From Obrimoposthia wandeli (lineage: Eukaryota), in assembly GCA_977020255.1 (NCBI GenBank), contig CDROCS010001054.1, positions 496,001 through 560,000 on the forward strand: a stretch of 64,000 bases of DNA. Reading direction: 5' to 3'. The notes beneath the pieces are model-generated. The model ran no database searches. It was not told the DNA's origin and worked only from the letters and a program-made list of their open reading frames with translations. Every line of letters begins with the position of its first letter. The stretch's first letter is position 1. This document shows, one piece after another, positions 157 through 32,304 of the stretch. A program made the position numbers and the translations under genes.

Positions 157-251
157 AGTAGGTGGATGTGTCCGGTCTAATCCACACCCCCTCCCCCTAC
201 TGTCCTTTAAAACCGTGCATGTCTGTGGAGTGAAATTTCGTGTAGGTGTGT
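157..251 (+). repeat. Left terminal inverted repeat of Polinton A
   Basis: ~95 bp matching the reverse complement of 15256-15351 with a few mismatches. Confidence 0.95.
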
Positions 252-568
252 AGAAAATCTTCCTACCCCCCTCCCAAACACTCAAAAAAATAATTAACTC
301 CATATAACACCCTTTAAATTTAAAAATCTCATAATGCTCCCAAAATTTTGATTAAGGTCCTGAGAGGCCGTAAAATTGGCCAAAGCGTGCCCTCCGGGCC
401 CGCGGTGGATCAACGAGTAAAAGATACAGTCAGGATTCGATAGAGAATTGGGAAGACTGTACTCCCAGGCTGAACACATAAGCCAATCGTCCGGCAACTT
501 CAGCAGTAGCAGCAAGGAGATCCAATCTCTTCGACAATTTTGAGGCGGCAATCAAATGCCCCTGGAAA

Positions 569-1917
569 TTGATCCCACTGTCTCAACCGGAGATAATACT
601 GGCACCAGACTCAGACGAGGAGCTGTTTACTGATGACGTTCCGTCGGATGGGGAGGAGGAATGGATACAGCCAAGTATCGGAGCCCCAGGAGCCAACGAG
701 TCCATGGTTGCAGAAATGGATGAAGATGAGTGGCATCTGTTCACCGACGAATGGGATGGTCTCACTCCCTCTACAACTCCGACTCCGATACCCAACAATG
801 CAGTGCCTGATCCATTCAGAAGGCCACAATCTCCGATACGTCCTGTTAGGAGAATAAAGGTGACGAATGAGGTTAGACATCATTTATTTAAAATGTTTTT
901 TACTTTTATTTTCAGAAACTGCAACTGGATTTGGCACCGTCAGTGACCACGATTGAGAGGCTGATTGAACCGCAGTACTTGGCGAGTCAATGTAGCCAGG
1001 ATGATCCCAGGAGTGAGCAGAGATACCTACCGACTCCAGCTAAATTTGAGGTATATTATTATAAATTAGTAAATTTATTTAATTATTCAAATAGGAAGCT
1101 GAATTGGTGGATGAAATTTGGGAGGAGGCAACTCGGAGACTACCCGTCGATAGGAAGCAAGCGGCGATTAAGAAACCTCGACGCCACCGTGTCAAAACCA
1201 ATACGGTCCATCGGAAGAAGGCCAAGTTGGTGAAACAGGCTAATCTGCCCGTCATCGAGGTAAATTATTTATATGTTTAAATTTTATTAATGTTTTTTTG
1301 TTGCAGGAACCAATACAATTAACTGAGGAGACATGGGCCAAAATTTCTCCTTTCCCGCAGAAAAAAAATTATTCTGAGGCGGTGATTGGCCAGCAGGAGA
1401 TTCTCCCATCTCTAGAGGACGACGGTCCAATTTTATACGAGAGGATCCCAGTCTCACCGATCGAGATTAGTCCGCCATCAAGTCAACGACGCCTGCAGGA
1501 GACATCACCGGCTTCTCCTCGTCCAACAACCAGCCAGAACTTGAAGAGGGCCTGGGATGAAGCTGGATTAGACGAATTCCTGACGGAACAGGATACACCG
1601 GCAATGCTTCCAGATTCGCGTGGGCAACAGGATGCCGTCTCACGCCAGCTTCAGCGTGAGAAAGAGGAGAAACAGAAGAAAGCTCCGCGGAAGAGGAAGG
1701 CTACTGCTTCTACGTCGGGGCCATTAACATCGGCTCCAAAACCTGAGGGAAGGACAATTGCTGTACAGCAACCGGTGAAGCCGAAAAAGAAACCAGGCCG
1801 GCCAAAGAAGAAGGAACCAGTACCGCTTTCTCCAATTATACTAAGTCGGAGAGAATACCGGATGATCCCAATGATGACTTCGTAAAAATGTTCAAAAATA
1901 TAATTTACAAAAATTAG
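569..1917 (+). pseudogene. Polinton gene 1: 4-exon acidic/Pro-rich disordered protein (~400 aa) with basic C-terminal part; start uncertain
   Basis: Phase-0 GT-AG introns at 872-915, 1051-1094 and 1260-1306 join ORFs 569, 931, an unlisted 55-codon open exon (1095-1259) and ORF 1298 in frame. A probable -1 frameshift near 1840 hides the C-terminus DDPNDDFVKMFKNIIYKN*, which is conserved in copy C. Confidence 0.8.
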
Positions 1918-2209
1918 TTTTTTGTGTTGTCTTTTTATTATTATTTATTTTAGAATTTAGTAATATTAAAATATCCTCCTTAAGTTTATTAAAATAACAA
2001 GATTAAAAATAAAGTTAACTTATTCGAATGTGATTGGATTATTAAGTAATAATTTAAATTTTTTAGGATTAAATATAAATGCAATGATTAGTTATATATT
2101 TATTAAACTTTCCTTTGATAAATATATTTTAATTGCTTGTGATTGGATTAAAAATATCTTAAATTTATATATATAGGTTCAAATTTATTAACATCTTCAT
2201 AATTAAAAA

Positions 2210-2569
2210 ATGGAATTTATTAAATTGCAAAGTTTGGTGACGAAGATCGAGGCAAACATAAGAATAAATGAGAAGAAAGGAGACTTACGAAAGAGGATCC
2301 TCAACCAGAATTTATATACTGCTGTCGCGACCGAGTGGAATCGTCGGGTGGAGATTCAGGACAGGCGGCTAGCAGAACGACGTCGGCTTGTGGAGTGAAA
2401 CAAGAAAATCGAAATGGAAAAAAGGAAGGTGGAGGAAAAAAGAAGAGAAGAGACGGAGGATGTTCGGCGAGCAGCAAGAAAGCGAATCCTCCAGATTAAA
2501 CCGGAAGAGGGTCCTTCCACAAAAAAATTAATTTTATTGATTACTTTGTCTTTATTCATTATGTTATAA
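2210..2569 (+). pseudogene. Polinton charged coiled-coil protein with one premature stop
   Basis: ORF 2210-2398 continues in frame past TGA (NKKIEMEKRKVEEKRREE...). A homologous relic lies at ~54260-54420. Confidence 0.65.
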
Positions 2570-2615
2570 AATTGTCTAAATATAAACAAATTTAAATATA
2601 AAGTTTTTTTGTAAA

Positions 2616-2838
2616 ATGGATAATAAAAATTGGAATAAATTATACATAAAATTATCTCCGGATTTAAAGGAAGATTATAAAAAAAATTACTTTTCAGAAA
2701 ATGATAGTACGGATACCATTGGATATAAAATATGTAATTTAATTTCGAAATATTTAGGTATGTTTACATTTAATATAATTAATTTTAATATTCATAGGAG
2801 AATTGACAATATATACCAATCTTAACATGAAAGACTGA
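2616..2838 (+). CDS. Small Polinton hypothetical protein, 2 exons
   Basis: Phase-1 intron at 2758-2797 (GTATGT...CATAG) gives ...KYLGELTIYTNLNMKD*. A relic (MGDKIN.NKL) lies at ~54630. Confidence 0.55.
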
Positions 2839-2924
2839 ATCCTGACTACCTCGTTATTTTAATAAATTTTTGATTAACAGTTTTTCGTTATAAACAACGG
2901 GATTTGCTACAAATTTGGGTAATT

Positions 2925-3412
2925 ATGCAGGAATATATCATAGATTTTGAGGCTTTCATTAACAAAAATGGGGATTATATTATAAAAGAATTATGTATTA
3001 TGGATGTATGCGACGTTTTCAATCCTTTGCATTTCATATTTCATATAGATATCCCATTTAAAAGTTTAGATTATAAGAAAAAATTTACTAATTTATATCT
3101 AACTAAATATTTCCATTTATTAAAATGGAAAGAAGGACATAAGGCTTTTTGTGAAATATGTATTTTCGATACTATGAAATCTAATTTTGATATTGAAAAT
3201 GGATTTTTTTATGATTTAGATGAAATGGATGGCAAAAAATATAAGACTTAAAAAAATATTTTCCTAAATTGAGGTTGAATACTTTAAATATGTCACGTGA
3301 TCATCTATTAAAAATTCCACAAAATATTTGCTGTCCATATCGTAATCATGGTGACCATTGCGCATATAAAAAATGTTTAAGTCTTTCTTATTATTACTTG
3401 ACATGTAGATAA
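2925..3412 (+). pseudogene. DEDD-like 3'-5' exonuclease-fold protein with C-terminal Cys/His cluster
   Basis: N-terminal IIDFEAF...IIKEL resembles ExoI DxE. After a -1 frameshift at ~3248 the frame continues ...ICCPYRNHGDHCAYKKC...TCR*. The same C-terminus is seen in copy C at ~55050-55250. Confidence 0.6.
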
Positions 3413-3419
3413 ACAATTA

Positions 3420-3660
3420 TTCTAATTGGAGGAATTCATTATTAAAATTTTACAATTATTTACAAATAAGCCTTTTGATTGGAGGAATAAAATTATTTTT
3501 CAACCTATAATAGATAAACAATCCTTCTCTTTAATTGGAGGAATAAAATTATTTTTTTCAACCAATAACAGATAAACAATCTTTCTCATTGGAGGAATAA
3601 ATTCAATTTTTTAATCCAATTGGAAAAGAGCATGTGTGCATAAATTTTAGTATATAAGCA
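3420..3660 (+). promoter_or_regulatory. Putative pPolB promoter: four ATTGGAGGAAT (inverted CCAAT) repeats plus TATA box
   Basis: ATTGGAGGAAT at 3425, 3478, 3534 and 3588; CCAATTGG at 3616; TTAGTATATAAG at 3647-3658; ATG at 3699. Confidence 0.65.
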
Positions 3661-3698
3661 AACACTTTCTTCATTTAAATCCCCGACAATTTGAAATA

Positions 3699-6600
3699 AT
3701 GCCTATGGTAAGAATCTATATTTATTATTTCCTTATTAATATTTATTATTTCAGATTACGTGTAACCTATTCCCTGCGTATTGTGGTGCTTCGGCACCGC
3801 ATAGAGGAGAGACCTGCATGGAGACAATGTCTGCATACTATCGGACAAAGTCTCGCGGGCTTCACTTCTTCGTCTGCCCCTTCTGCAGAACAATGGAGGA
3901 GAAGGAGTTTCGAGACTTCTTCAGTGAACATCGAGCTCACCTATCGTGTTTCACGGCCAACAATAAGAAGAGGGATATCGTCCAATTGGTGCGCGATTCG
4001 CAGGTCGCTCCAGCTCCACCTCCAATTCCAGTTGCAGTCGATCAACCCTTTTACGGTCCTGCCATTGGTCCTTCTCTCCCGGCTCCTGATTCTGCTGCTG
4101 CCCCATCCACTCAAATGTCTAACAATGAGTGGATGAACGACATCTCCGAAGAAGATTTTGAGGAGTTGGCACCAGCAACCCAATTCTCAAACAATGACTG
4201 GATGCGAAATATCAACCAGTCAGATTTCGAGATGGAGCAGCCTCAATGGAGCGACAACTCTGGTTGGAGACCATCGAGGAATCTGATTTCGTCGAGATGT
4301 CGGACGACAGCTGGATGGATTCCATCAATGAAGAGGACTTCATTCCAGCTCAACTTGGATTGCCTTCATTAGGTATTTTTTATTATTATTTTTAAATTAT
4401 ATATTTTATTTTTTATTATATATATTTTATTTTTATTTTTTATTCAGGAAATACCCTGATACAGCCGTCATCAGATAGGACAGCTATGCCTCCCCCATCT
4501 CGAGTGCCTACGTCGATGTTAGCACGCCTTAGAGGTAATAATTTTTAAAAATATATTTATTTTTTAATATATTTATTTCAGCAGCACTAACCTCTACAAC
4601 AGCCGCTTCTTCATAGACAAGGTCAGCTTCAAATGCAACCTCTACAACTGCCACTGTCTTATCAACATCTGCAGCACCTGCTACAGTAGCCCCTTCAACA
4701 TCAGCTACGATTGTCTCAACTATTAATATAAATAGTTGTCTTCCCGTTCAATTAGGGGGAGGTTCGTCAGCGACAAACGGAAGAAAGAGGCGAGGCCAAT
4801 TTCTTAATAAGGTCACACCCAAAAAACGTAGAGAAAACGGTGCTACTATAGAGTATCACCTAAATAATAAATATGTTATAGTTAAGGTGCCATTAGGAAA
4901 TGAAATTTTATTAAACGTAGGTGTAGATTCAAATATTGAAAATCTTTTAAAATCAGAAGTGACTAAATTAGGACAGGCTAAGGTTCTATTTTGCGCAACA
5001 GTGCAGTTTAAAAATGTCAATGAGGAAACTAAAACTTGGGTAATTTCACATAAAGCAACTGTTTTTTATGATAATTTTGTAACTGAAATTGGAAGAAACC
5101 TGGATGAAAAAATTGCTAATTATAGCGAGTTAAGTAGTGGATGGACTCTAGTTAGAATTCACGATGTTAGCTTTGTTCTAACAAAGTTCACTGACATGAT
5201 ATATCTTTCGGGGAGTTCATACATTCCTTCACCTAGATCTCTTCAACTTTCACGTTCCATTGTTAACGTACAAAACAGTGATAACCTTTGCTTTCTGTAT
5301 AGTGTGTTGGCCATCCTCAAAAGGGATGTAATTACTGAGCATAGAGAGCGTGTCAGTAAATATACCCCTTTTTAAATGAATTGCAGTATCATGGAATAGA
5401 TTTTCCTGTTAAATTAACTGCGATATCAAGATTTGAACATCTTAATAACTTGAGTATTAATGTATTCAAATATAATACTGATATCCCAGTTAATGTAACA
5501 GATGAAGAAATTTTTAAAAATCCTTTTGTAGATGTAATTTATAGGAGCAAAATGAGGGGACTCAGGTCAACTTAATTTTGCTCGAACAGAATAATAAATT
5601 CCATTATGCTACAATTCCCAGTTTAGATCGTCTTCTAAATTTAGATAATGGAGCCTTACCGGTTAGGATAAGGTGTAAGTGGTATCATAGATGTTTGCAT
5701 GGGTTCCGATCCGAGCTCTCTTACAGCAAACATCTGACATTATTTTCACTGAATCCTGATGACAATACGCTATATAGCATGCCTAAGGATAAGGATTTAA
5801 AATTCAGGGATTGGGCAAAATGCATACCCGTGGAATTCAGGGTGTATGCAGATTTTGAGTCAATTTTAGCATTGCACGACCAGTATGAGAGTATTCACCT
5901 ACCGGCTTCGGCAGGACTACTATTCTTAGGCCCCAATAATACCCAGTATCATAAATTTTCCGGTCCAAATTGTATTTTAGATTTTATGTTAAAATTAGAG
6001 GAATTAGAAACAACAATTGTCAAACCGTGGTATGATCTCAATGCTCATCAAGCAATGATCATGACAGGCATAGACTGGGTTAATTTTAATTCTTGTAGAT
6101 TATGTTATTTGTGTGGAACCCGGTCTAAGTTAGTCAGAGATCACGATCATGTTACGGGGCGATACTTGGGAGCGGCGTGCAACCTTTGTAACCTTGGCCG
6201 TCGTCTCCCTAAAAAACCACACATTCCCATCGTGTTTCATAACCTCAAAGGATATGATTTGCATCATATACTTAAATACGCGTTGGGTACATTAAGCTCT
6301 TGGGAAATTTCATGTATACCTCAAACTTCAGATAAATATTTATCTTTAACTGCATATACTGAATTCTGCAGTTTAAGATTCATAGATTCTCTGCAGTTTT
6401 TGAGCGGGTCTTTAAAATATTTAACGGCATCTTTAAATGCATGGCCAATTACACAGTCAGTGTTCCCAGCTTCGGTTAACGATAAGGGGATTTTTCCGTA
6501 TAAATTTGCGAAAACATTTGCAGATTTAGAAAATACAACTGAAATCCCACCCATAACTGAATTTTAGGGTGTAAGTCTTCAAGACTATAATGAGGCCCGT

Positions 6601-8128
6601 ACATTTTGGGTGAATAATTGTCGAAATCTTCTCGAATATATGCTTTATTATATAAAGTTAGACATTTATCTTTTAGCTGATGTTTTTGAGTCCTTTCGTG
6701 TAAAGTCTTGAGCAGAAGATGGGCTAGATCCCATGCATTTCTTTAGTTTACCTGATCTTTCATGGGCAACAGCAATAAAAACTCTTAAAATTAATATCGA
6801 GTTACTGCAAGATCCCGCGATGTATCAAATGTATGATTATAGTATATGCGGTGGAATGACTTTTGTCAACAAACATCATGTTGTCAAAAATCAATCCACG
6901 GAGATTCTGTACATCGATATTAATAATTTGTATGGGTGGGCGCTTACTCAACATCTACCTCATGCCAACTTTAAGTGGGTTTATGATGTGGATCAGTTGA
7001 ATAAGTTGATGACAGATTTGGTTACTATTGATACAGTTTCATCCGACGTCGGCTGAGGTGGACATAAAAATTCCTCCCAATGTGCATGATAAATTAGATG
7101 ATCTTCCAGTAGCGCCTGTTCATCAATGCCCACCTAATTCAAAGGTTAAGAAATTATTGTTAACCCATGAAGACAAGTTGAATTATGTTGTGCATTGGCG
7201 GCTTCTTCAATTCTACTTAAAGTTGGGAGCGAAAGTTACTCGAATTCATCGTGCTATAAGCTTCAGTCAAAACTTTGTGTTTAAAGACTATATTGAGAAG
7301 AATTCAAGAAAACGTAATTTGGCCACTAGCAAATTCGATCGAGATTTTTACAAGTTAAAAAGTAATAGTCTCTTTGGAAAAACTGTAGAGGACTTGCGGA
7401 AACGTATTTGTCTACGGTTTTGCAATGATAAGCGTAAACTAATAACATATACTAGCAAGTACAACTTCAAGCGTAGTTTTACAATTGCAGATGACTTGGT
7501 AGCAGTGTTATTAGGAAAACAGAGTATTTGTCTCGATCGACCGAGTTATATAGGTCAAACGGTTTTAGACATTTCTAAACTCAGAATGTATGAGCTTCAA
7601 TACATAGAATTGGAGAAATACCGACAAGAATTTAATTGTGAGATTAAAATCGCAGCTGGGGACACTGACTCTTTCTTTTTAGAATGTAGGAATGTTAGTT
7701 TAAATAATCAATTATTACCAGCAATGTTTAGGGACAACTTACTAGATACCCATAAATATCCCGCTAACCATCCTCTACACTCTATGAGTTTAAAGGACAT
7801 TATCGGGAAATTTAAGGATGAAAGCGAGGGACAGGTTTCGTATGATGATTGTATTTTCCTACGCCCTAAATGCTACAGTTTACATGCATCTAATAATACA
7901 TGTTCAATGAGAGCAAAGGGTGTGGGAAGAAACAATCTTACACATGAGGCCTACCGGAAAGTTTATGATACTGGGTGTATTGAAAGCGTTGAGCAAACTA
8001 GATTTATTTCAAGAGCCCATCAACTGTATTCCCATAAATCAACAAAACTCGCTTTGAGTAGTAATGACGACAAGCGCTTTTGGGTAGAAAAGAACGCTAG
8101 CCTGGCTTATGGACACTTCAGAATTTAA
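3699..8128 (+). pseudogene. Protein-primed family B DNA polymerase (pPolB), spliced, with N-terminal extension; disrupted
   Basis: Motifs YADFES (ExoI), FHNLKGYD (ExoII), YIDINNLYG (A), KLKSNSLFGK (B), GDTDS (C), RPKCY and KGV; HNH/endonuclease VII-like CYLC..RDHDH..CNLCN insert. Introns at 3708-3754, 4373-4447 and 4535-4581 join the upstream exons in frame with ORF 4887. Stops at 4614, 6565 and ~6708; frameshifts at ~4259, ~5372, ~5552 and ~7054. Confidence 0.95.
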
Positions 8129-8389
8129 ACGGTTTTCATTTTTTGATTTTTTTAGTTTAGTTTTTTAAAATTTTAGATCCCTATGGCACCTAGATTCTAA
8201 CTTATTTGTTATTTCAATACATTTTTAGGATGGACCTTATCTTTGCTGACATATCTCATTGTGATGTTGTGATTAATAAATGTATTAAAAAAAATTGTCT
8301 TATGTCTTTTATTATTTTACCCTTATATTTTTAGAGATTTAAAAAATAATTCAAAATAAAACATTTAAAATTTTTATTTTTATAACACA

Positions 8390-8770
8390 CTAATTGTTTT
8401 GCAACGATAACCATAAAATACATAAATGTCCACAGATTCTCGTCGCAGGATCCTGATATTGTATCTTGTTGTAAAATACTCTTCTTCGTCCTTTTTGAAT
8501 AGTTTAAACAAGTTTGTGTGGATAATACATTGCAAGTGGATCAAATACATGTATTGTCCACTCTCTAACATAAATAGCTATCCAATGTTCTCCTGGTAAA
8601 TTCGAAGTATGAGTATTGATAATGTAACCTCCAGATTGAAAAAATGAAATCATATCAATAGGATAAACTCCATTGAATTTATCACCCAGGACCTTCTCTG
8701 CTGATTCTTTTACTTGTTTTGAACTAAATAAAAATTAATAAATATAAATTTAAAATATGTCTTACTCCAT
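8390..8770 (-). pseudogene. Adenain-like cysteine protease (PRO), 2 exons, one premature stop
   Basis: After removing intron 8724-8765 it reads MDSKQVKES...INTHTSNLPGEHWIAIY...VFDP...*...QYQDPATRICGHLC, with His/Asp/Gln/Cys motifs of Polinton/adenoviral proteases. Confidence 0.88.
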
Positions 8771-8771
8771 T

Positions 8772-9825
8772 CTATAATATGACAGTTCTGTTTTTATTGA
8801 TTTGTATTTCCGAATCAAATACTCCGTAAATAAGCACCGTAGTAGGATGTGTTAAAGCTGCATTGAACTTAATTTCTAGTCGTAAATTTCCATCCTTTGG
8901 TAGTTGGCATTGGTTTATATCAAAGTCTGGTGCCAAAACGAATGTGAAGAACGGGCAGCTACTTTTAAACTCAGTGAAAGGAAGACCATTGTTTATATTT
9001 TTATCTAGTTTACCCAAATTCCGAATAATAGATTGGGTATAAGCCAAAGCATAAGCGTTACCTTCGAAATCTGTTTTATATGTTTCACGATAATCAGTAT
9101 TTCTTGAAAGTGTCACTGAACCTACATTAAGATTGTCAAATTGAGTTGCATCTGTCGTATAATTTCCTAGAAACTTTGCAGTTTTTTGAAAAGAAATTAA
9201 AATGAATTTCGGTAATCTTACATCACCAAAAATTTGATCCTTATTAAAAGCTTGTGTACCCGTACCTAAAGAATAAGATATAAGTTTAGTTTCTCTAATA
9301 GGATAACAAGCATTGTTTTTTTCCATTCCTATATTATGTGCCATTAAAACTGATTGCTCGGTTTTAACTCTTCGAACATACAATTTTGCATCCAAAATAT
9401 CAAGTCTAGGTTTTAAAACGTCCGTGCTTATCAAAGAAAAATTCCATTTATTACGTTTTAAACGAAGATGAACATTAACACCGGGAATTAAATATTTCGG
9501 TTGTTCAAAGAAATTCAATCTCAAAGACCCACACATTTCATAAGCTTTAGAACCTGCAATCCATTCTTTGCGAGTTGCAACAGTTTTATCATAACCAATG
9601 GTTGCCAAATTAGTATTTTGAGTATCAGTACTATAATTCAAAAGACTTTCAATCAAAGCTTTATGAGCATAGGAAGAATTTCCACCTTCAATTTTGACAT
9701 TATTAAGAGTAACAATGCCATCACTAAATAAAGAATTAAATAGATAATTTACAGGTGTTACATCGGCATTTTCATCTAAATTAGTACCATCCCGATTTAA
9801 TACTTTTATTTGAACATACCATTTT
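8772..9825 (-). pseudogene. Major capsid protein (double jelly-roll, PY), N-terminus deleted
   Basis: YVQIKVLNRDG...NSLFSD...YAHKALIESLLNYS...NFFEQPKYLIPGV...FVLAPD...GNLRLEIKF are typical Polinton MCP motifs. The MACAKSEL-type start seen at 30634 is absent here. Confidence 0.9.
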
Positions 9826-10440
9826 TTAATGTTTCACATTTATCCAAATATTCACTACATTCCTTCTGTATTAATTTACAGAAATTCACTTCACTATCTA
9901 TTTTATAATCTTTTGAAAACGTTTTCAGTTCCACTACAGTCTTTGGTCTCGTTTCAACTAACAACACTCTTACTACTCTACAAGGAACATTTTTAAACAT
10001 TTTAGATGAGACAATATCAGATCTCTTCATACCTACTACATGTCCACTATCAAAACCGAATTAAAGAGCTTCTTTTCCAGATTCGAATATAATTTGAATA
10101 GGTTGAACATGTTTTGATCGATTTTTAAATCTGACTTTGTTTTTTTCATATATTACTTTCACCTCTTTATCTATACAATTGTAAAAGAATTTTCCTTTAC
10201 TATCAAACCCGATCACAACTTTAGTTGTTTTTCATGATCAACTTCTTTTGTAAACGAAATATGTGAGTTTTTTCTGATAGTAATTGGAGAATAATAAAAA
10301 GAAAATTCGGTTAAAGCCGCTTCCCATTCTCCTTGGAGATTTATAGGATTTTCCCAATCGATAATAAAGCTACTAGCGTAATTATCTGGTTGAGTCTTCG
10401 GACATCCGTTACTAGGTAAAACCATATACATAGACTTCAT
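9806..10440 (-). pseudogene. Minor capsid protein/penton (PX), disrupted and C-terminally truncated
   Basis: N-terminus MVLPSN..PDN..SSF...PINLQGEWEAALTEF is typical of Polinton pentons. Its ATG overlaps the integrase stop (ATGA). Confidence 0.8.
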
Positions 10441-11463
10441 ATTATTTTAGATGCTGATATCCAAGTTGGGTCTGAATAACCATGCCATTTAACAAAGTAT
10501 TGTTTATGTTTACCTGTACCCTTAGATTTTAATATTTTTTGAATACGGAAAACGCTAAGTTTATTTGATATTACTTGTAGTTCTTGCTCGTAAATTATTA
10601 TCAGTATTATTATTGTCAGCATCTTTAATAGTATACATTATTGGATTACTCTTTTGATCAATTTTACTTATACAAAATATTTCATCGCTCCAATTCTGAT
10701 CAAAGTTTTTAATAAATGGAGTAGAGCTAATTTTCGAAATTCGAACATATTCGTTTTTCTTATATTTAGCTTTTCTAATTTTTTCTTTTTTATTCCTGTT
10801 CATCCAAATGTCCATAGAGTTTTTATTAGTAACATCAACAGGTCTCATTCCCTTGAGACCTCTATGTTCAGAGTGATTATATGCATGTATTATTTTAGGC
10901 AAAACTTGGATCCATTTTTTATTTCCTTCTTTTGTGAAATACTTTTTTATTCGATCTCTTAGAGTACGATTAAATCTTTCTACTACTGCTGCTTTGTATT
11001 GTGAAAACACAGAGTAATGATTTATATTATTTTGTTTAAATAATGATTGAACTTGCTTATTATAAAATTATTTTCCTAAATCAGTTTGCACATTTTGTGG
11101 AATGTCCTCTTTTAATATTTCTTTAATGGCTTCAAGCATAGCTATTGAAGACTTTGCTTTAACTGAAATTGAACGAGCAAACCTGCTAAATACATCAATA
11201 CATGTTAAAATATATCGATATCCCTTATTAATGGAAGAATATGGGATCATCTCTATCAAAACCATTTGCCATAAATTATTAGGACCGCTGGTTTTGTAAG
11301 CTCTAGTTGGAAACCTTCTTCTCATCGGTTTGTTCAGACTGTAGGCTAACTGGTTGCTCAGCCATTTCTGCGTTTTATTGTATTTTTGTTTTGTTCTTTT
11401 TGCTAATTTTGAAACTCCTGTGTAGCCAATTGGATCTTTTGGATTGAACCATATCTTCTCCAT
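10437..11463 (-). pseudogene. Retroviral-like (c-)integrase with C-terminal chromodomain
   Basis: IDVFSRF, QTDLGK, VERFNRTL and chromodomain QYFVKWHGY. Nonsense codon at 11068 (GAA in copy D); frameshift near 10590; the first catalytic Asp is replaced (WQMVL). Confidence 0.95.
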
Positions 11464-11549
11464 TACAACAATTTAAATTGAAAGAAAATTTAAGTTTAGT
11501 TAAAGAAGGGCTAGCACCCATATCTTTAGCTGATTTTAGAAATAATTGT

Positions 11550-11879
11550 TTATGAACGTGTCGCAGCTATAATACTACTGATAATTGAAGCAACAACTGG
11601 AATAACAGCCCCTATGAAACCACCATTCTGTTTAAGAATAATATTTCGTTTCTCTTTTTTACTTTTTACATTAGCAATATCTAGAAGAGTTTTTCTATAT
11701 TTCTTTAATATATTTTTCCGATTTCCAACTTTTACTCGACCCAAAACTATATTATACAAAACTTCCAATAAATCATCTACAACAAAGGATGGAAATGCTT
11801 TAAGAATAATCATTCTCTTATTAGAAGAGGCTTTGACTAAAGCTTTAAAATAGGGTATGCTTCTTTGTATTTTCTTCAT
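11550..11879 (-). CDS. Conserved basic Polinton protein (PW-like) ending in QNGG plus an amphipathic helix
   Basis: Intact 109 aa, basic, ending LKQNGGFIGAVIPVVASIISSIIAATRS. A near-identical intact copy lies at 19124-19453. Confidence 0.8.
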   Translation of the reverse strand: MKKIQRSIPYFKALVKASSNKRMIILKAFPSFVVDDLLEVLYNIVLGRVKVGNRKNILKKYRKTLLDIANVKSKKEKRNIILKQNGGFIGAVIPVVASIISSIIAATRS

Positions 11880-11910
11880 TTTAATAAAAAAGGTTCAATT
11901 TAAATATTGT

Positions 11911-12052
11911 TTATATTCGAAGCCATTTAAGTTTTTTTTTATTTTAAACTACAGATTTGATTAATTTATTCACTTCTTTTATTCTTAATGATTCTTTTTT
12001 TTGATTTCTTAGATTTTACTTTACGTTTTACTATCAACTTTGTAAAAGGCAT
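11911..12052 (-). pseudogene. Short very basic peptide (~46-48 aa), frameshifted
   Basis: Consensus of A and D (18950-19095): MPFTKLIVK(HK)RKVKSKKSKKRIVKKKEVNKLIKSVVRNKRKLKWLRI*. Each copy has different lesions. Confidence 0.5.
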
Positions 12053-12059
12053 TGCGAAT

Positions 12060-12707
12060 TTATTTTTTATAATTGTTCTCTATTTGTTTATAAACAGTTA
12101 CTCCCTTAGAATTAAATATGTCTGTTAAAACACGTAAATCATCTGGGCAAGCTTGTGTAAAGTCAATAAATATATACCCATGTGCTTGTTTAGCAGCATC
12201 GTGGAATGAATCAACTAGAAAGTTCTTATTTTGAGGAAATGCCTGTCTGGCCACAAAATCAACAACTGTTTGATCTCTAGGATTTTTAAATAAAACTAAG
12301 TAATGTACATTAAGATTTCTTGTTCTATGGTGACCTCCTTGGGGAAACAGATTTTGAGTGATAAATATAACTGTTACTTCACGATGTCTTGCAATCTTTG
12401 TAGATAAATTATTAAAGTCCGATTCCTTGTTAGCCTCCTCATACAAATCATCAATTATTATTACATCTTCTTTTTTCAATCTTTCACACCAATTTGCATC
12501 AAATCCTTCAATAAATTTTATTCCCTTCAACTTGCAAACTTCTGTTTTGGTTAACCCGCTTTCCCCTCCTCCGCCATGATGCCAATAAATATTTTTGAAA
12601 CTAGATTTGAAAAGAGATTCATTTTGCAACAATTTACAGACGAAATGTGTCTTTCCACTTCCACTAGGGCCAAATATTTGAAATACAGCATTATTATTTA
12701 GCTCCAT
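12060..12707 (-). CDS. A32/FtsK-HerA-like packaging ATPase
   Basis: Walker A GPSGSGKT, Walker B VIIIDD, then ARH...FITQNLF and YLVLFKNPRD; intact 215 aa. Confidence 0.95.
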   Translation of the reverse strand: MELNNNAVFQIFGPSGSGKTHFVCKLLQNESLFKSSFKNIYWHHGGGGESGLTKTEVCKLKGIKFIEGFDANWCERLKKEDVIIIDDLYEEANKESDFNNLSTKIARHREVTVIFITQNLFPQGGHHRTRNLNVHYLVLFKNPRDQTVVDFVARQAFPQNKNFLVDSFHDAAKQAHGYIFIDFTQACPDDLRVLTDIFNSKGVTVYKQIENNYKK

Positions 12708-12744
12708 TGCATATACTCTTTCATTTTTAATATTGTTTATATTA

Positions 12745-13017
12745 TCATAGAAGTTTCCTTATTGAAATGTACAATGTTAGAGCTATTGTAGATGAAATAC
12801 AAAAATTAATTAATGAATATTTGGCTATAATTTTATTTATTTGTGTACGATTTCTAAATTCTCGAATAACGTGTGATCTAACCAATATTTCAATGTTATC
12901 TCTTGTTATATCATTATTTTTTAATTCTGATAAAATTTCTTTACCCCTAATTTTTCCAGAAAATATTTCGTCGGCAAGCCGATCCACTTCATTGTCTCTA
13001 TTTATAGTATTATTCAT
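12745..13017 (-). CDS. Hypothetical 90-aa protein with hydrophobic C-terminus
   Basis: Intact ORF co-oriented between the TBP-like gene and the ATPase; C-terminus SLINFCISSTIALTLYISI. Confidence 0.5.
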   Translation of the reverse strand: MNNTINRDNEVDRLADEIFSGKIRGKEILSELKNNDITRDNIEILVRSHVIREFRNRTQINKIIAKYSLINFCISSTIALTLYISIRKLL

Positions 13018-13045
13018 TCAAAACAATAAGTTTAAACGGGTTTGT

Positions 13046-13545
13046 TTATAGAAAAGATAACAAGATGTAATAAGATATATTTTCTAAAATCAAATCAACA
13101 ATGTTTGGATAATCAAAAATTTTCAATCCCAATATCATAACTTTACCACTAGAAAATATATTTACACATAGCGGTTTAAACTTCAAATAACTGAGAGCAG
13201 GAAAAATTTCTGGTTCAAACATGCATTTTTCTTTCATTTTCTCTGCAGTTTTAAAAAGATTTATCTGTTTCCCGAGATTAGCCGAAATCGTGATTGATTG
13301 TATTGCAGTGATTTGAATTCCAAATGGTAAATTGAACCCAAGCATTGGTATTTTGCATCCCATAACACGACAATTTCCTAAAGAATTCAATATGAAAATA
13401 AAATAAAAAACTAACCTGTAGGAAAAATAACAACTGTGAAATTGTCAAACTTTTCTACATATTGTCTCGGCTTCCATTCATTGAATGGTAAGTACGAAAC
13501 ATCATCTTCTGTTCTACCTTTATAATTTATATTTACGAGTTTCAT
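13046..13545 (-). CDS. TATA-binding-protein (TBP)-like protein, 2 exons, 153 aa
   Basis: Exons 13545-13416 and 13377-13046 (38-nt phase-1 intron). Repeat 1: KLVNINYKG...VVIFPTGNCRVMGCK. Repeat 2: IQSITISANLGKQINL...FEPEIFPALSY...IFSSGKVMILGLK, matching the TBP signature YEPELFPGL...IFxSGKxVxTGAK. Confidence 0.85.
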
Positions 13546-13639
13546 TAGACTGAAATTGTATTCTGTAAAATCTTCTTTATATATGTCTGAACCTGCTTTT
13601 TATTGCACGTTTCTTGTAATTATCTTGCAAACCTATTAT

Positions 13640-13792
13640 AATTGGATGATATATTTCTTCCAATCAATTTTGATTTTAATATAGATTTAGTCCAATCAAA
13701 TTCAATGCTTTAGTTATATTAACCAATGAGATTCATGTCTTTGTTAGAAATTAGTATAAAAGAATGCGCCATTGGAGGACAAATCACAGTAA
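13640..13792. promoter_or_regulatory. Putative bidirectional promoter between the TBP-like gene and the plus-strand paralog pair
   Basis: Several CCAAT motifs at 13650-13730, TTAGTATAAAAG at 13751 and ATTGGAGGA at 13771. The TATA motif is conserved at 34752. Confidence 0.55.
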
Positions 13793-14269
13793 ATGCATTC
13801 ATATCAAAGACAATTATCAACGATGGACAATAGCCAAAGGGTATTAAGCGATGACGAAGAAATGTTTGAAGAATCGGATAAGGATATGTATGAAGAAGTG
13901 AAACAATATTTCAAATACAAAGTCAGATTCTTGAAGAAGGCTCAACTGATTGCTTTAGTAAATCCTGTGACAATTGAAAGAAGAAAGTTCAGCTACTATC
14001 TATCAGGTATTCAAAAACCTGATTTTCAATATCTTAAACAGAAAGTTGAAAAGGCAGTTCCAAATTTTACTTTCAATAAGAACAAATTTTATATCCGAGG
14101 AGCTGATGAAGCATTTCTAGATGACTATGGAAGATATGTTGATATTGATGCGTTTCCGAAAAAGAAGCAATGGACTCTAACAATTCGACTTTATGGTTAC
14201 AAGAAAGATGAAATGGGAACAAAGTTGCCTATGTGAAAAATTGAACGTGCTCATATTTCTATGTTTTAA
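13793..14269 (+). pseudogene. Hypothetical protein, paralog 1 (premature TGA at 14234)
   Basis: The related copy at ~35240 has TGG at this codon. The restored end is WTLTIRLYGY...LPMWKIERAHISMF. Confidence 0.7.
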
Positions 14270-14404
14270 CTTTTTGTGTGTAATAAATTGTAATCGGTTT
14301 TACTATGTTTCTTTCATTTAATAATCAGTTTTATTTGTATCTTATTTGTATCTTATATGTATTTTTTTATAAACATTGTTTTTAATCTGTTTCCTTATTT
14401 TAGA

Positions 14405-14818
14405 ATGGATAAGAGATGTGTAGCAAATTTTTATTATCCAGAAAGAATTTCAAAAGGAAAACTATGTAATATATTAAAGAGGCATCAAATTATACGAGTT
14501 ATGAATCCTGTGAAAATATCAAAAGTGCAGAATATATATCTCATCGAAATTTTAACAACAACTGATATTGATCAATTGAAAAATATTTTGGGATTTTACA
14601 TTCCTGATTATGTATATGAAGGAAATTGTTTCCAGCTTGAAACTGATCCCGGTCTGGATTTTAAAGATGATCTAGGATATTTGATTGCTCCAATTCTAGA
14701 TGAAGAACTATGGAATATCTCAATACGTCTCAATGGATATTTTGCTGATGACTGGAAAATGCAGCCTCTCTGGACTTTGAGTGAAGCCAATATGTTTAAT
14801 AAATATTTTGAAAAATAA
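14405..14818 (+). CDS. Hypothetical protein, paralog 2
   Basis: Intact; C-terminal WNISIRLNGY...QPLWTLSEANMF resembles paralog 1. A homolog lies at 35466-35870. Confidence 0.7.
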   Translation: MDKRCVANFYYPERISKGKLCNILKRHQIIRVMNPVKISKVQNIYLIEILTTTDIDQLKNILGFYIPDYVYEGNCFQLETDPGLDFKDDLGYLIAPILDEELWNISIRLNGYFADDWKMQPLWTLSEANMFNKYFEK

Positions 14819-15059
14819 TTTTGTCTCGTATTTTGTTTTTTACTCCTCTAAATTATATAGATCTGACCGATTTTTGTCCTCTTAATTCTAAAACTGACAT
14901 AGATATTTAACATGTAGTAATTTATTAATCTAAAATCTTTCTTAAAAATAGTAGTAATATTTGAAATCTCGTCTGCGAAAAGCCGCCGGGGTCAATATGG
15001 ATTCTCGTGGTCTTCTCTAACCACTTTTGAGATTCGTGGTAAATTTTTTTTTAAATGTG

Positions 15060-15310
15060 GTGGGTGGGGAGGGGGTACCCCCCTCCCTTCCCCCTTTGGG
15101 TGGGATGAAGACACACATACACGAAATTTCACTCCACACACATGCACGAAATTTCAACACACACACATGTTCGGTTTTAAAGGACAGTAGGGGGGGTACC
15201 CCCTTCCTTCCCCCTTTGGGTGGAATGGAGACACACATACACGAAATTTCACTCCACACACCTACACGAAATTTCACTCCACACACATGCACGGTTTTAA
15301 AGGACAGTGG
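15060..15310. repeat. Subterminal ~120-bp tandem duplication with CACGAAATTTCACTCCACACAC sub-repeats and GGGGGTACCCCC palindromes
   Basis: Two units each contain GGGGTACCCC...CCCCTTTGGGTGG...CACGAAATTTCA...GGTTTTAAAGGACAGT. Confidence 0.85.
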
Positions 15311-15351
15311 AGGGAGGGGGGTGTGGATTAGACCGGACACTTCCACCTACT
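15256..15351 (-). repeat. Right terminal inverted repeat of Polinton A
   Basis: Reverse complement of 157-251, followed by TSD TCTGTA. Confidence 0.95.
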
Positions 15352-15357
15352 TCTGTA

Positions 15358-18214
15358 TTATATTTGAATACATTTATACTCAAGTTATTCATGTGTTCAA
15401 ATCTTGATATCGCAATTAATTTAACAGGAAAATCTATTCGATGATACTGCGATTCATTAAAAAGGTTATATTTACTGACACGCTCTCTGTGCTCAGTAAT
15501 TATACTTATCTTGAGGATGGTCAACACGCTATACAGAAAGCAAAGGTTATCACTATTTTGCATGTTAACAATATAACTTGAGAGTTGAAGATATCTAGAT
15601 CAAGAAATGTATAAACTCTTTGAAAGATAAATCATATCCGTGAACTTTGTTAAAACAAAGCTAACATCGTGAATTCTAACTAGAATTCCACTAGTTAACT
15701 CGCTTTAATTAGCACCTTTTTCAAATAAATTTCTTTCAATCTCAGTTACAAAGCTATTGTAGAAAACAGTAGCTTTATGTAAAATTAACCAAGTTTTAGT
15801 TTTCTCATTGACATTTTTAAACTGCACTGTTGCACAAAACTGCACTTTAGCCTGACCTAATTTCGTCACTTCTGATTTTAAAAGATTCTCAATATTTGAA
15901 TTTACACCTACGTTCAATAAAATTTCATTTCCCATGGGAACCTTAACTATAACGTATTTGTTATTTAGGTGATACTCAATAGTAGCACCATTTTCCTACG
16001 TTTTTTGGTGGTGCTTTATTAGACATTGGCATCTTCTCTTTCTACCTACCATCGCCGACAAACCTATCTCTAATTGAACAGGAAATCCACTAGTTTTATT
16101 GTTTAGGAGTCCTGCTGCTGTTGATGTTGTCAGTGATGTTGTTGAAGTTGAGGCTACAATGGCTAATGTAGACGATGCTGATGAGGATGCTGCGCCGGAT
16201 GTTGAAGCTACAGCGGCTGTGGATGCTTTGGCTGAAGACATGGTTAGGGTCTCTATGGATGCTGATACAGAAGATACTGGTGCTGCCAGCAACGATGATG
16301 TTATTGAAGACGCAGCTGTTTAGAAAATAAATATATTATATAATTTAAAGTGAGTTACTTCTTAAGTCAGTCAACCTTGACCTGGACGCTACTATCGTTG
16401 ATCGAGGCATTTGAGTTGATGACGCTGAACCTCGGGATTCGGCTACTCTGGAGGCCGATGATGTAGATAATGCAACTGCTGAACAAAATATATTAATTAA
16501 ATTATATTTATTTTAAACATTGCCTTTGAAGCCTGCAAACATTGACGCAGGCACTCGCACTGAAGGGGACATCGCAGCCGTAGTAGGTGAAGTTGTTGAA
16601 GAAATTCCTAATGAAAATATAAAATAATAAATAATTTATATTACTTATTTAATTCTAATTTTTTAAAAAATCATAACGAAGAATTACCTGTAAAACCTAA
16701 TGAAGTCTATCCAACTGTAGCTTGTTGGGGAAAAAAGTCTTCTTCGTTGACGGCATCCATTTAGCTGTCATCGTCAACTAAAAATCGGATTAGTCGATTC
16801 TGTCTAATCAGCTGTTGTCAATCTATTGCGTTGAAGTCTGCTCCATCTCTAAACCAGACTGGGTGATTTGATCCATTCCGTCGTTTTTCGATAGTTGAGT
16901 TGTTGGTGTAGTGGTTTCCTTCTCAAATGAGCTTGGCAGATGACCTCCATTCGCTCATTGTTGGTCAGTTGAGTGGATGATTCAGAAGTAGGCATGGTAA
17001 CCAGGGAAGCGACAGACTGGACTATTTCAGGATCAAAAGCAGGCTTGAAGCTAACTGCTAGTTCTGGAACTGGAACAAAATCATTCGAAGGATTGCGCAC
17101 CAACTGGATAAATCTATTCTTCTTGTTGTTTGGCCCCGTTTAGCGAAGAAAACCAAATACTCCTTGTCCTTTACCGTTCGGTAGAATAGGCATACGTAAA
17201 CATTTCACGAAGTCATCATCAGGATCATACTTATCGATATCCCCCGACTTACTGGGCGAGGTTTATGAGATACCGGCAGATTCTTCTTCGTTCGGTCAGG
17301 TTTCTTTTTCGGCTGCACTACTACCGATTTCTGTGCAGCATTTGTCGTTCCAGAATGCTTTGGGAGGATTGGTCTCAACATTTGGGAGGCATTGCAGTCG
17401 AAGTAGATGCCCCGGCTGATGAAATTGACAGCTGAGGTATTGAAGCTACGGTTTTCTTCTTCTTTTGTGTTTGCTTCTTTTTGTCCTTCTCACGCTCCAG
17501 CTGCCGTGCTCCTGCATTCTGTTGTCGATTGAAAACTGGATACATGGCTGTTGGTTGCGGGTGCAGGGTCTCTAGTTCCGCCATTAATTTACCCAAATTA
17601 GCATCGAGTCAGGCCCTCTTCAAATTCTGACTTGTAGATGTCACAAGAAGAAGAGATGTTTCCATATCCTTCTAAGCTCGCGCACAGGTTTTGACTGAGA
17701 CTGTATGACTGCTGAATAACCAGTGATGGTGGCGACGGAGTACAATTCCCCAGCAATGTCTCCTACAGATGACGCTGGCTTGGATGAGGAGTTATCTCAA
17801 TAGGAGCAACTGTGATCTTCGTGTATATGATCGGCTCATCTTCTAACGGCGAAGCAAGATTATCCTGCTGTAAAATCAACACCTAGGCAGAAGCGAGCAG
17901 GCTGGTGGTCATCTTCCTCCTCTTCTTATTGTGCACTACCGTCTGCTACTTACACATTGGTGCGATATAATTAGCCTCTCCCATTAGCTTCTCCAGTTAC
18001 TGATTTGGGTCATGCATTAGAAAAAACACACATATATATATATATTTTAATAAATTACCTCTATAACTGATAAGTTTGCATGTTTCACCAATTTCACTTT
18101 TTTGCTTCGGACTGTCTTCGTCGTCACCTTGAGTCTCATTAACCTCTGCACCACTGCATGTTTCTGGTCAGTCGGTATTATAGGAGTAGCCTCTTCCAGA
18201 ACCTTCTCCGCGTG
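15358..18214 (-). mobile_element. Polinton copy B, decayed, reverse orientation: pPolB 5' exons and gene 1 3' exons
   Basis: Homologous to A 4000-5470 and A 1100-1800. The intervening genes are deleted, and the copy is cut at 18214 by copy D. Confidence 0.88.
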
Positions 18215-18384
18215 AGTAAGTGGATATGTTCGGTCCAATCCACCCCTTCCCCTCCCTCGGGGGCTACCACTGTCCTTTAAACCCGTGTATGTGTGTGGAG
18301 TGAAATATTTGATAAAAAGCAACAAAAAGGGGGGCCTCCCACCAAAAAAAACGCCCCTTTGGGCGCCCCGGCTGCACCCCTCTC

Positions 18385-18935
18385 ATTTGAGCAAAATAAA
18401 TATCTTTTCAATTCTAGTTTCAAAAATATTTATTGGCATCATGATGGAGGAGGAGAAAGTGGATTAACCAAAACAGAGGTTTGCAAGTTGAAGGGAATAA
18501 AATTTATTGAAGGATTTGATGCAAATTGGTGTGAAAGATTGAAAAAAGAAGATGTAATAATAATTGATGATTTGTATGAGGAGGCTAACAAGGAATCGGA
18601 CTTTAATAATTTATCTACAAAGATTGCAAGACATCGTGAAGTAATAGTTATATTTATCACTCAAAATCTTTTTCACCAAGGAGGTCATCATAGAACAAGA
18701 AATATTAAAGTACATTACTTAGTTTTATTTAAAAATCTTAAAGATCAAACAGTTGTAGATTTCATAGCCAGACAGGCATTTCCACGAAATAAGAACTTTC
18801 TAGAACTGCTAAACAAGCACATAGGTATATATTTATTGACTTTACACAAGCGTACACAGATGATTTACGTGTTTTAACAGACATATTTAATTCTAAGTGA
18901 GTAACTGTTTATAAACAAATAGAGAACAATTATAA
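18385..18935 (+). pseudogene. Packaging ATPase of copy D, Walker A deleted
   Basis: VIIIDD and FITQNLF are present; the N-terminus is replaced by subterminal DNA. Confidence 0.9.
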
Positions 18936-19123
18936 AAACCAAATTTGCAATGCCTTTTAAAAGTTGATAGTGAAACATAAACGTAAAGTAAAATCTAAGA
19001 AATGAAAAAAAAGAATCGTTAAGAAAAAAGAAGTGAATAAATTAATCAAATCTGTAGTTAGAAATAAAAGAAAACTTAAATGGCTTCGAATATAAACAAT
19101 ATTCAAAGTGAACTTTTTTTAAA

Positions 19124-19453
19124 ATGAAGAAAATACAAAGTAGCATACCCTATTTTAAAGCTTTAGTCAAAGCCTCTTCTAATAAGAGAATGATTATTCT
19201 TAAAGCATTTCCATCCTTTGTTGTAGATGATTTATTGGAAGTTTTGTATAATATAGTTTTGGGTCGAGTAAAAGTTGGAAATCGGAAAAATATATTAAAG
19301 AAATATAGAAAAACTCTTCTAGATATTGCTAATGTAAAAAGTAAAAAAGAGAAACGAAATATTATTCTTAAACAGAATGGTGGTTTCATAGGGGCTGTTA
19401 TTCCAGTTGTTGCTTCAATTATCAGTAGTATTATAGCTGCGACACGTTCATAA
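19124..19453 (+). CDS. PW-like basic protein of copy D
   Basis: One amino-acid difference from A 11550-11879. Confidence 0.8.
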   Translation: MKKIQSSIPYFKALVKASSNKRMIILKAFPSFVVDDLLEVLYNIVLGRVKVGNRKNILKKYRKTLLDIANVKSKKEKRNIILKQNGGFIGAVIPVVASIISSIIAATRS

Positions 19454-19539
19454 ACAATTATTTCTAAAATCAGCTAAAGATATGGGTGCTAGCCCTTCTT
19501 TACCTAAACTTAAATTTTCTTTCTATTCAAATTGTTGTA

Positions 19540-20567: not shown

Positions 20568-20819
20568 AATCTATGTATATGGTTTTACCTAGTAACGGAT
20601 GCCCGAAGATTCTGCCGTATAATGACGCTAGTAACTTTATTATCGATAAGGAAAATCCTATAAATCTCGAAGGAGATTGGGAAGCACCTATAACATAATT
20701 GTCTTTTTATTATTCTCTAATTACTATCAGAAAATACTCACATATTTCGTTTATAAAATAAATGAATTATGAAAAAACAAAAAAATGTTATGATCGGGTT
20801 TGATAGTAAAGGAAAATTT

Positions 20820-29748: not shown

Positions 29749-29854
29749 ATTATATCTAAATGTAATCATATTTTTAGCATGTTTTATATTGAAAAGATAA
29801 ATTTATCAAATTCAAGTTAAAATCTAATATCTAAAGTATAATGTTTAATAATCG

Positions 29855-30230: not shown

Positions 30231-30249
30231 ACAATGTTAATCGTTAATA

Positions 30250-30630: not shown

Positions 30631-30633
30631 GAA

Positions 30634-32290: not shown

Positions 32291-32304
32291 AATGAAAAAA
32301 TATA

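Follow-up and report, generated by a model that had tools for sequence, protein, structure and literature searches.

A predicted spliced leader with a double-zinc domain and acidic-Trp repeats on a Polinton polymerase of Obrimoposthia wandeli

A Polinton polymerase and the question of its start

Where does the polymerase of a Polinton begin? The question is raised by a 64,000-nt stretch of the Obrimoposthia wandeli genome (GCA_977020255.1, contig CDROCS010001054.1, 496,001-560,000, forward strand; hereafter the window, whose positions serve as coordinates throughout), which holds a Polinton/Maverick element, copy A, with a polymerase gene (pPolB). An earlier note, made from the letters alone, had claimed that this gene carries a spliced N-terminal extension consisting of a zinc finger, four acidic-Trp repeats and a Ser/Thr linker. 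The fusion of such a leader to pPolB is well supported, both by a comparison of copies and by outside open reading frames (ORFs) that join its zinc domain to the terminal protein or the vOTU domain. The whole of our best explanation, a spliced leader on pPolB whose repeats dock host RPA during replication, is offered tentatively.

Copy A (157..15351, no strand assigned) spans 15,195 bp and has terminal inverted repeats (arms at 156-254 and 15253-15352) and a 6-bp target-site duplication, an identical 6-mer at 151-156 and 15352-15357. Its Pfam matches include a PF03175 polymerase with an EndoVII/HNH insert, an rve integrase, a packaging ATPase and a TBP-like gene; the integrase (PF00665/PF13683) and ATPase (PF04665) matches have E-values of 5e-5 to 4e-3, PF03175 falls below the cut-off only in one broken piece, and PF02945 is matched as well. 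With these ends, the duplication, pPolB, integrase and ATPase, copy A is a Polinton/Maverick. When exon 2 of the leader was searched against the 1.35-Gb genome, all of the 150 matches scored were at 92-100% identity, i.e., at least 150 close copies; the first-look candidates, 24,641 for exon 2 and 32,440 for the TBP-like exon, are very high figures that are not copy numbers. Sixty of the 150 matches (20 loci including copy A, and 40 of the next 42) form the A set used below, with a median difference of 4% among 59 A copies. The predicted gene in copy A reads as follows, counts being of A copies.

3651..3658 (+): TATA-like box of a predicted promoter, lying 48 nt before the ATG; unchanged in 55 of 60
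3699..3707 (+): the three codons that exon 1 contributes; ATG at 3699, in 59 of 60
3708..3754 (+): predicted intron 1, 47 nt, phase 0, containing an in-frame stop; GT in 59 and AG in 58 of 60
3755..3970 (+): exon 2, double-zinc domain of 72 residues; Cys/His region at 3761-3940
3971..4117 (+): exon 2, Pro/Ala-rich spacer, by translation; no selection signal (P=0.71)
4118..4341 (+): exon 2, four acidic-Trp repeats with core W-[ML]-x-x-I-x-x-x-D-F
4118-4159 (+): repeat 1
4187-4228 (+): repeat 2
4250-4290 (+): repeat 3, split by a frameshift near 4259 in copy A
4300-4341 (+): repeat 4
4373..4447 (+): predicted intron 2, 75 nt, phase 1; GT in 58 and AG in 59 of 60
4448..4534 (+): exon 3, rich in Ser and Pro; its length of 87 nt is shared by 53 of 56, and 51 of 56 are free of stops
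4535..4581 (+): predicted intron 3, 47 nt, phase 1; GT in 55 and AG in 55 of 60
4582..4748 (+): start of exon 4, Ser/Thr/Ala linker of variable length
4749..4832 (+): QLGGG (candidate protease site), then basic GRKRR and PKKRR (candidate nuclear localization signal, NLS)
4869..8128 (+): pPolB body, with terminal-protein-like domain, vOTU, exonuclease with HNH insert, and palm; PF03175, PF02945

Comparison of copies and the case for splicing

Copy A itself is dead. A premature stop at 4614-4616 adds to the frameshift near 4259, and several further stops and frameshifts break the polymerase into at least four ORFs. The earlier note had joined exons 3699-3707, 3755-4372, 4448-4534 and 4582 onward in frame with the polymerase; the ATG and the GT..AG sites are indeed there, but correcting the frameshift alone does not give read-through, as the stop at 4614-4616 intervenes. 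As the chain is broken in copy A, the claim has to be judged on other copies.

Every site could be mapped in 56 A copies. Exon 2 has a length of 3n+1 in 52 of these and is additionally stop-free in 40, and an open chain runs from the ATG up to where the terminal protein starts in 19 and as far as the vOTU Cys in 8; among 36 long A loci with mapped sites, none is open to the polymerase end. The leader amounts to 304 codons up to GRKRR and 334 up to the terminal protein. A separate downstream ATG for pPolB, named in the earlier note as an outcome that would speak against the extension, is lacking in most copies: the exon-4 frame is open to the terminal protein in 32 copies and lacks a preceding Met in 29 of them, the first Met of this frame in copy A being at 5196. 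The three predicted introns are 85-96% A+T, and their lengths range across copies from 47 to 118 nt (intron 2) and from 31 to 48 nt (intron 3), each falling into all three classes modulo three. The linker length classes common to at least two copies are all in frame (7/7), as against 9 of 18 lengths seen in single copies, though the linker consists of units whose own length is divisible by three, so these classes are only partly independent. A scan of copy A for AT-rich GT..AG segments, with thresholds chosen once the introns were known, gave seven candidates, three of them the leader introns and others within the upstream, protease-like and TBP-like genes; the opposite strand of the gene gave none, and three or more candidates arose in 7 of 300 block shuffles.

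An older copy in inverted orientation, copy B, continues on both flanks of copy A, which is inserted in its polymerase gene; copy B offers a second subfamily for comparison (further copy B sequence lies at 20-156 and 15352-20818, with more Polinton fragments near 27900-36000 and 53000-56100).

15352..17200 (-): leader and terminal-protein region of copy B, decayed; older subfamily with one extra phase-1 intron

The leaders of copies A and B are about 67% identical. In 20 B-type loci, 69-76% identical to copy B, the sites of intron 2 persist in 14 (donor) and 13 (acceptor), and the donor and acceptor of intron 3 in 15 each. The additional linker intron of this subfamily has its GT in 10 and its AG in 12 of the 20, and in the window's copy B it is in phase 1 and maintains the frame. 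Seven B loci reach the start, where the B copies have the same 9-nt mini-exon layout ahead of a GT donor: the second ATG with the GT donor is found in five, both ATGs in three and the acceptor in five, and two of the seven also have an ATG as the first codon of exon 2. The TATA-like box is exact in three of seven B copies and one change off in the remaining four. A host RPA70N-like gene has a 38-nt intron with a make-up like that of the leader introns. Three host RPA70N-like loci, L093-L095, each show a 10-codon first exon followed by a 38-nt intron; the genes are split over exons and incomplete within these loci, and they are perhaps paralogues or fragments. In one sample, four contig runs whose type is unrecorded were compared with the exon 3-vOTU region, and none of the 15 joints listed, out of 75, matched intron 3; these runs behave as genomic DNA and are uninformative on expression.

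As the sites, frames, mini-exon and introns persist in both the A and B subfamilies, splicing is supported by independent lines, and we infer that the leader is very probably spliced in vivo. With GT..AG ends, conserved position and free length, the three predicted introns have the sequence hallmarks of spliceosomal introns.

The double-zinc domain

The Cys/His region lies where the earlier note had placed it, and its predicted ligands are C-x6-C-x5-H-x4-C followed by C-x2-C-x14-H-x2-H, i.e., a CCHC and a C2H2-like site. The second site thus differs from the one described in that note, whose trailing Cys is matched by none of the 10 B copies that cover it. A HMMER scan with exon 2 identified 25 outside representatives at E≤0.001, with every match confined to residues 1-123, and in 22 aligned sequences the ligands of the first site are conserved in 17 (C3), 17 (C10), 14 (H16) and 21 (C21), and those of the second in 22 (C41), 22 (C44), 22 (H59) and 21 (H62), the missing Cys being gaps at truncated ends. 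Outside proteins often carry the domain in tandem arrays of two or three. Variants shared by at least four A copies are mostly synonymous in this domain (13 synonymous and 4 non-synonymous, versus 20 and 43 among private variants, P=0.002), as they are in the terminal-protein region (6 and 1 versus 29 and 114, P=0.0007), which indicates that the zinc domain is under purifying selection.

No Pfam family was found for the double-zinc domain. Its AlphaFold2 model has a predicted local distance difference test (pLDDT) score of 77 and a predicted template modelling (pTM) score of 0.65, and a Foldseek search of PDB and BFVD gave no row at E≤0.001, which for a small domain with a model of pLDDT 77 does not show newness. 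The weak rows were to Tramtrack and Kaiso (E>1), and the best VIA match had Z 2.1 and a root-mean-square deviation of 4.0 over 53; the modelled domain is thus at most like a beta-beta-alpha finger. A classical C2H2 finger (PF00096, C-x2-4-C-x12-H-x3-5-H) does not describe it, as the spacing is x14 and H-x2-H and there is no Pfam match. A RING finger, hinted at by Atlas (0.76-0.78), was rejected since the ligands run C,C,H,C then C,C,H,H and not as a C3HC4 cross-brace.

Four outside proteins, P0003, P0029, P0041 and P0034, carry the zinc domain in one ORF with the terminal protein and/or vOTU; P0003, which came from the polymerase search, has the second half of the domain (pairwise E=1e-10). 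Six short zinc-domain hits end directly after the domain in Phe/Ile-rich tails, and the closest full polymerases, P0001, P0002 and P0004, begin at or just before the terminal protein; together these tails and late starts suggest unrecognised introns in the outside relatives. In P0028, P0031 and P0036 classical C2H2 fingers are joined to two or three copies of the double-zinc domain. By eye, a similar Cys/His pattern precedes a full pPolB in P0005 and P0061 (pairwise E=0.003); the profile missed these two proteins and they were not counted. A word-index search with exon 2 found the domain in none of 101 candidates, the zinc alignment found it in none of 1726 proteins of 588-2000 residues, and no locus came from viral or metagenome contigs scanned with P0003, P0001, P0029 and the TBP-like exon.

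The acidic-Trp repeats

The four repeats that the earlier note had described, including the frameshift near 4259, were recovered at the positions listed above. In a natural copy the motif occurs four times in an 83-residue segment, as in none of 100,000 shuffles, a comparison made with a pattern drawn up after the repeats had been seen. Exact cores number four in 44, three in 13 and two in 2 of the 60 A copies, and one A copy has six cores through duplication. The earlier note had credited copy B with a single retained repeat; the B subfamily does keep the motif, though as all four repeats in decayed form (18/75 Trp codons have become stops) and with the extra intron. Between A and B the repeats differ at 7/75 second versus 19/75 third codon positions (P=0.016), and core positions are conserved at 0.73 versus 0.50 (P=0.03). 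The acidic-Trp repeats are real, and they are seen only in the Obrimoposthia wandeli genome: the search for them in other Polinton pPolBs, proposed in the earlier note, did not find them in outside relatives, so they appear to be a lineage add-on. Other acidic blocks do occur in outside leaders (net charge -8 to -15 in P0004, P0006, P0019 and P0020), the most acidic 30 residues ranging from -15 to +2.

The repeat segment contains 28% Asp/Glu and 1% Lys/Arg, a composition that fits an acidic transactivation domain, and the repeat 11-mers have a net charge of -1 to -5 with Trp, Met/Leu, Ile and Phe. RPA70N ligands are acidic-hydrophobic motifs of about 20 residues with little shared sequence (PMC10479964), a loose definition with which the repeats agree. 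The transactivation or RPA70N/p62-binding role that the earlier note had suggested for the repeats is thus a reading of composition. A likeness to DSS1/Sem1 found no support in Pfam or PDB sequence searches.

The QLGGG junction and the polymerase body

Both the linker (65% Ser/Thr/Ala over 55 residues) and GRKRR (4779-4793) lie where the earlier note had put them. Between them, QLGGG is intact in 39 of 53 mapped A copies and precedes two basic patches, so that both NLS-like patches lie on its polymerase side. It fits a (MIL)XGG form, which we take to be one used by adenain. A comparable Gly motif precedes the terminal protein in 14 of 22 outside proteins versus 1.1 expected from shuffles, with a pattern picked after inspection and 6 of 28 proteins excluded as too short or fused. 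A Q-x-G-G-G plus basic motif is widespread in Polinton polymerases and divides the leader from the terminal protein.

All motifs of the polymerase body occur in order in one natural ORF of another copy, and the vOTU region is 40-56% identical to that of the five closest outside pPolBs. The OTU-like Cys and His ahead of a PF03175-type polymerase mark the predicted protein as a group 2 / Alpha pPolB with an ordinary body, where the terminal-protein and vOTU labels are given by position and motif after PMC11071308 and not from a fold search.

Possible functions of the leader

Based on these features we propose that the polymerase would be made from a four-exon spliced mRNA and would carry a leader of ~300 residues in which the predicted double-zinc domain is followed by the four acidic-Trp repeats and by a tether of Ser, Thr and Ala; after this leader would come the NLS-like patch, the terminal protein, the vOTU and the polymerase. 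The zinc domain might, with about an even chance, bind nucleic acid and keep the precursor on the element's DNA, in the slot that classical C2H2 fingers occupy elsewhere in group 2. The acidic-aromatic repeats could imitate single-stranded DNA and, as a multivalent docking site, occupy the basic groove of an OB fold, foremost that of host RPA70N and otherwise that of the element's own single-strand DNA-binding (SSB)-like proteins, the docked binder then coating the strand displaced during protein-primed synthesis; this joint step is a tentative proposal to which we give somewhat less than an even chance. It is evenly balanced whether the leader would then be clipped at QLGGG by an adenain-like protease or the vOTU, leaving the NLS and terminal protein on the genome end. 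Recruitment of host RPA by the repeats is accordingly named here as a best guess, short of probable, and the fit to RPA70N is one of composition.

Several observations weigh against this proposal or parts of it. The 60 A copies were ranked by exon-2 likeness, a choice biased toward open frames in that exon. Selection on the repeats is not significant within subfamily A (9 synonymous and 16 non-synonymous shared versus 23 and 58 private, P=0.47), and the A-versus-B codon-position test is not significant for the zinc region (P=0.14). Acidic-Trp repeats occur in none of the 25 zinc-domain hits, whose matches end by residue 123, and among outside proteins P0004 alone has a short partial look-alike at its start; with the repeats missing from outside hits, most relatives would replicate without them. 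No RPA ligand or DSS1 chain was retrieved in PDB sequence searches at E≤10 or in Pfam at E≤5. The element also contains SSB-like candidates (Atlas 0.84-0.87, a lead only), and if it does encode its own SSB-like proteins it would have less need for host RPA. The Gly motif is absent from 8 of the 22 outside proteins, including P0003, P0029 and P0034, and QLGGG matches neither of the adenain motifs quoted in the available text of 10.1101/341131, (MIL)XGXG and L(LR)GG, so that cleavage there is suggested by position and conservation.

Other readings of the leader differ in how much of it they retain. A zinc domain, an acidic-aromatic block and a basic patch make up the layout of an activator, and the leader might be a built-in one, its zinc domain sitting on element promoters while the repeats recruit TFIIH, Mediator or the mini-TBP, before or after clipping at QLGGG. 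This would suit an element with TATA-like boxes and a spliced 153-residue TBP-like gene in at least 150 copies, as well as the union of double-zinc domains with classical C2H2 fingers in P0028, P0031 and P0036, and one acidic peptide may serve RPA70N as well as transcription factors, as in p53 (PMC10479964). It is the main rival, a little less likely than our proposal; against it, the leader is in one chain with the replicase, both NLS-like patches are on the polymerase side of QLGGG, and DNA binding by the zinc domain is itself a prediction. If, on a genuine fusion, the repeats act as an acidic spacer under weak constraint that has no outside partner and serves solubility or self-inhibition of basic zinc and terminal-protein surfaces, one could understand their confinement to one genome, the non-significant selection within A and the wide range of charge in outside leaders; the constant spacing of Trp, Met/Leu, Ile and Asp-Phe in four units and in both A and B, while neighbouring residues vary, makes this explanation less plausible still.

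Two further possibilities would do away with the fusion altogether. Exons 1-3 could mainly be a separate small regulatory gene, with the polymerase made from another start or leader exon: several zinc-domain hits lack any match to the terminal protein or vOTU, a split terminal protein has been described in one Polinton (PMC11071308), and adintoviruses have 'Oncoid' genes upstream of PolB (PMC8502044). Against this, exon 3 has no stop ahead of its donor, the exon-4 frame mostly lacks a Met, the phases agree in both subfamilies, and outside ORFs unite both parts, making a separate gene very improbable. That the chain is a chance assembly of GT and AG in AT-rich decayed DNA could be argued from the frameshift and stop in copy A and from the 36 long loci, none open to the polymerase end, yet the chain is conserved in both subfamilies, its exons are held to the frame, the zinc domain is under selection and homologues exist outside, which leaves it hardly any likelihood.

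Extended to its fullest, the proposal of a spliced, RPA-docking leader would describe a wide, overlooked lineage of intron-containing Polintons in which a DNA-binding double-zinc domain of new fold and an acidic leader that can be detached stand before the terminal protein. In the present family the four repeats, as DNA mimics, would let one polyprotein both activate TATA promoters with the element's mini-TBP and seize host RPA, as an E1A-like regulator within the replicase that a protease frees at a Q-x-G-G-G site common to group 2 Polintons; we think it improbable that all of this holds.

Comparison with known systems

Group 2 Polinton/Maverick (Alpha adintovirus) pPolBs share the order of terminal protein, vOTU, exonuclease and palm, the vOTU Cys/His and a PF03175 polymerase with HNH/EndoVII insert (PMC11071308, PMC8502044), and the elements share the terminal inverted repeats, 6-bp target-site duplication, rve integrase and ATPase. 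They differ in that here a spliced leader of ~300 residues with a double-zinc domain and repeats is predicted upstream of the terminal protein, where the portions of PMC11071308 and PMC8502044 at hand describe nothing upstream of D1/terminal protein; PMC11071308 proposes vOTU cleavage between terminal protein and vOTU. The closest counterparts are group 2 pPolBs with N-terminal C2H2 fingers (PF00096 in P0010-P0012, P0014, P0015 and P0017; P0006 is named C2H2-type), which likewise have a variable zinc-finger and sometimes acidic leader, Q-x-G-G-[GA], a basic patch and the terminal protein, whereas the leader described here has a CCHC plus C2H2-like double site outside Pfam, is predicted to be spliced, and has four ordered acidic-Trp repeats. 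A variable zinc-finger/acidic leader before a Gly-rich and basic motif thus appears, from these sequences, to be common in group 2 Polinton polymerases.

In human adenovirus, three codons come from an upstream exon and the precursor terminal protein (pTP) is trimmed by adenain. To our knowledge adenoviruses have pTP split from pol and no such zinc/acidic leader, whereas here both lie in one chain. As predicted here, the 5' ends of adenovirus E2B pTP and Ad-pol are spliced from shared upstream exons (PMC11304566). Spliceosomal introns are also found in Polinton-type elements of dinoflagellates, the introner-bearing eupolintoviruses, where they are recent transposon insertions, while those predicted here are short, host-like, AT-rich and fixed across subfamilies (PMC12166617). 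The RPA70N motifs of p53, BLM, HelB, RAD9 and MRE11 are similarly acidic, 14-20 residues long, with spaced Trp/Phe/Ile/Met and more than one per protein (PMC10479964); the repeats differ as four near-identical tandem units on a viral-type polymerase, and the likeness is one of composition with no consensus.

Polinton polymerases have been modelled from ORF calls that start at the terminal protein, and intact animal elements have been described as intronless, e.g., intact vertebrate Mavericks in PMC8097293, citing Kapitonov and Jurka 2006. In the Obrimoposthia wandeli family, by contrast, the start codon and a quarter of the protein would lie behind short introns, which on the predicted gene structure are needed to give the polymerase its start codon. 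As the closest database entries seem cut at the same place, the true N-termini of the whole lineage may be absent from annotations. A spliced pPolB leader, double-zinc domain or acidic-Trp repeats were not reported in the Polinton literature surveyed in part, a survey to which Repbase, supplements and most subscription papers did not belong, and the available text of 10.1101/2023.08.22.554363, PMC5803895, PMC12220804 and PMC7070027 has nothing on a leader. The predicted leader is a first concrete candidate for contact of a Polinton replicase with host factors; it offers an unnamed zinc domain for structure work, and through its conserved Gly motif the processing of the precursor becomes open to test.

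Other genes of the element and its surroundings

Further genes of copy A are as follows.

482-1885 (+): gene of several exons in the upstream, 'Oncoid' position, containing acidic-Trp segments of its own and having a basic C-terminus
2874-3410 (+): interrupted ORF, D-x-E motif close to the start, end rich in Cys and His; by eye a DEDD-type exonuclease look, no Pfam match
13545-13046 (-): spliced TBP-like gene, 43+1+109 = 153 residues; PF00352, E=1e-11
13793-14260 and 14405-14818 (+): two tandem paralogous ORFs, 30% identical to each other

The upstream multi-exon gene, which gave no Pfam or PHROG hits of note, has one intron from the scan (1260-1306) and two further ones placed by eye. The ORF at 8772-9833 and the protease-like gene near 8400-8770 look capsid- and protease-like by eye, without a Pfam match; the latter (8400-8770, minus strand) has a 42-nt intron, 8765-8724, close to its start. 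The TBP-like gene has a 38-nt intron (13415-13378) and at least 150 copies at 96-99% identity, and TBP genes in related elements are mentioned in figure legends of 10.1101/697771. The tandem ORFs possibly encode SSB proteins, the model of the SSB-like ORF being poor (pLDDT 46); their Atlas look-alikes (0.84-0.87) are among giant-virus proteins, including Pox_I3 (12% of members), DUF2738 and DUF5871. Elsewhere in the window, at 45198-46616 and 43865-44248 (plus strand), there are unrelated transposase remnants, DDE_Tnp_1_7 (E=1e-63) and DUF659.

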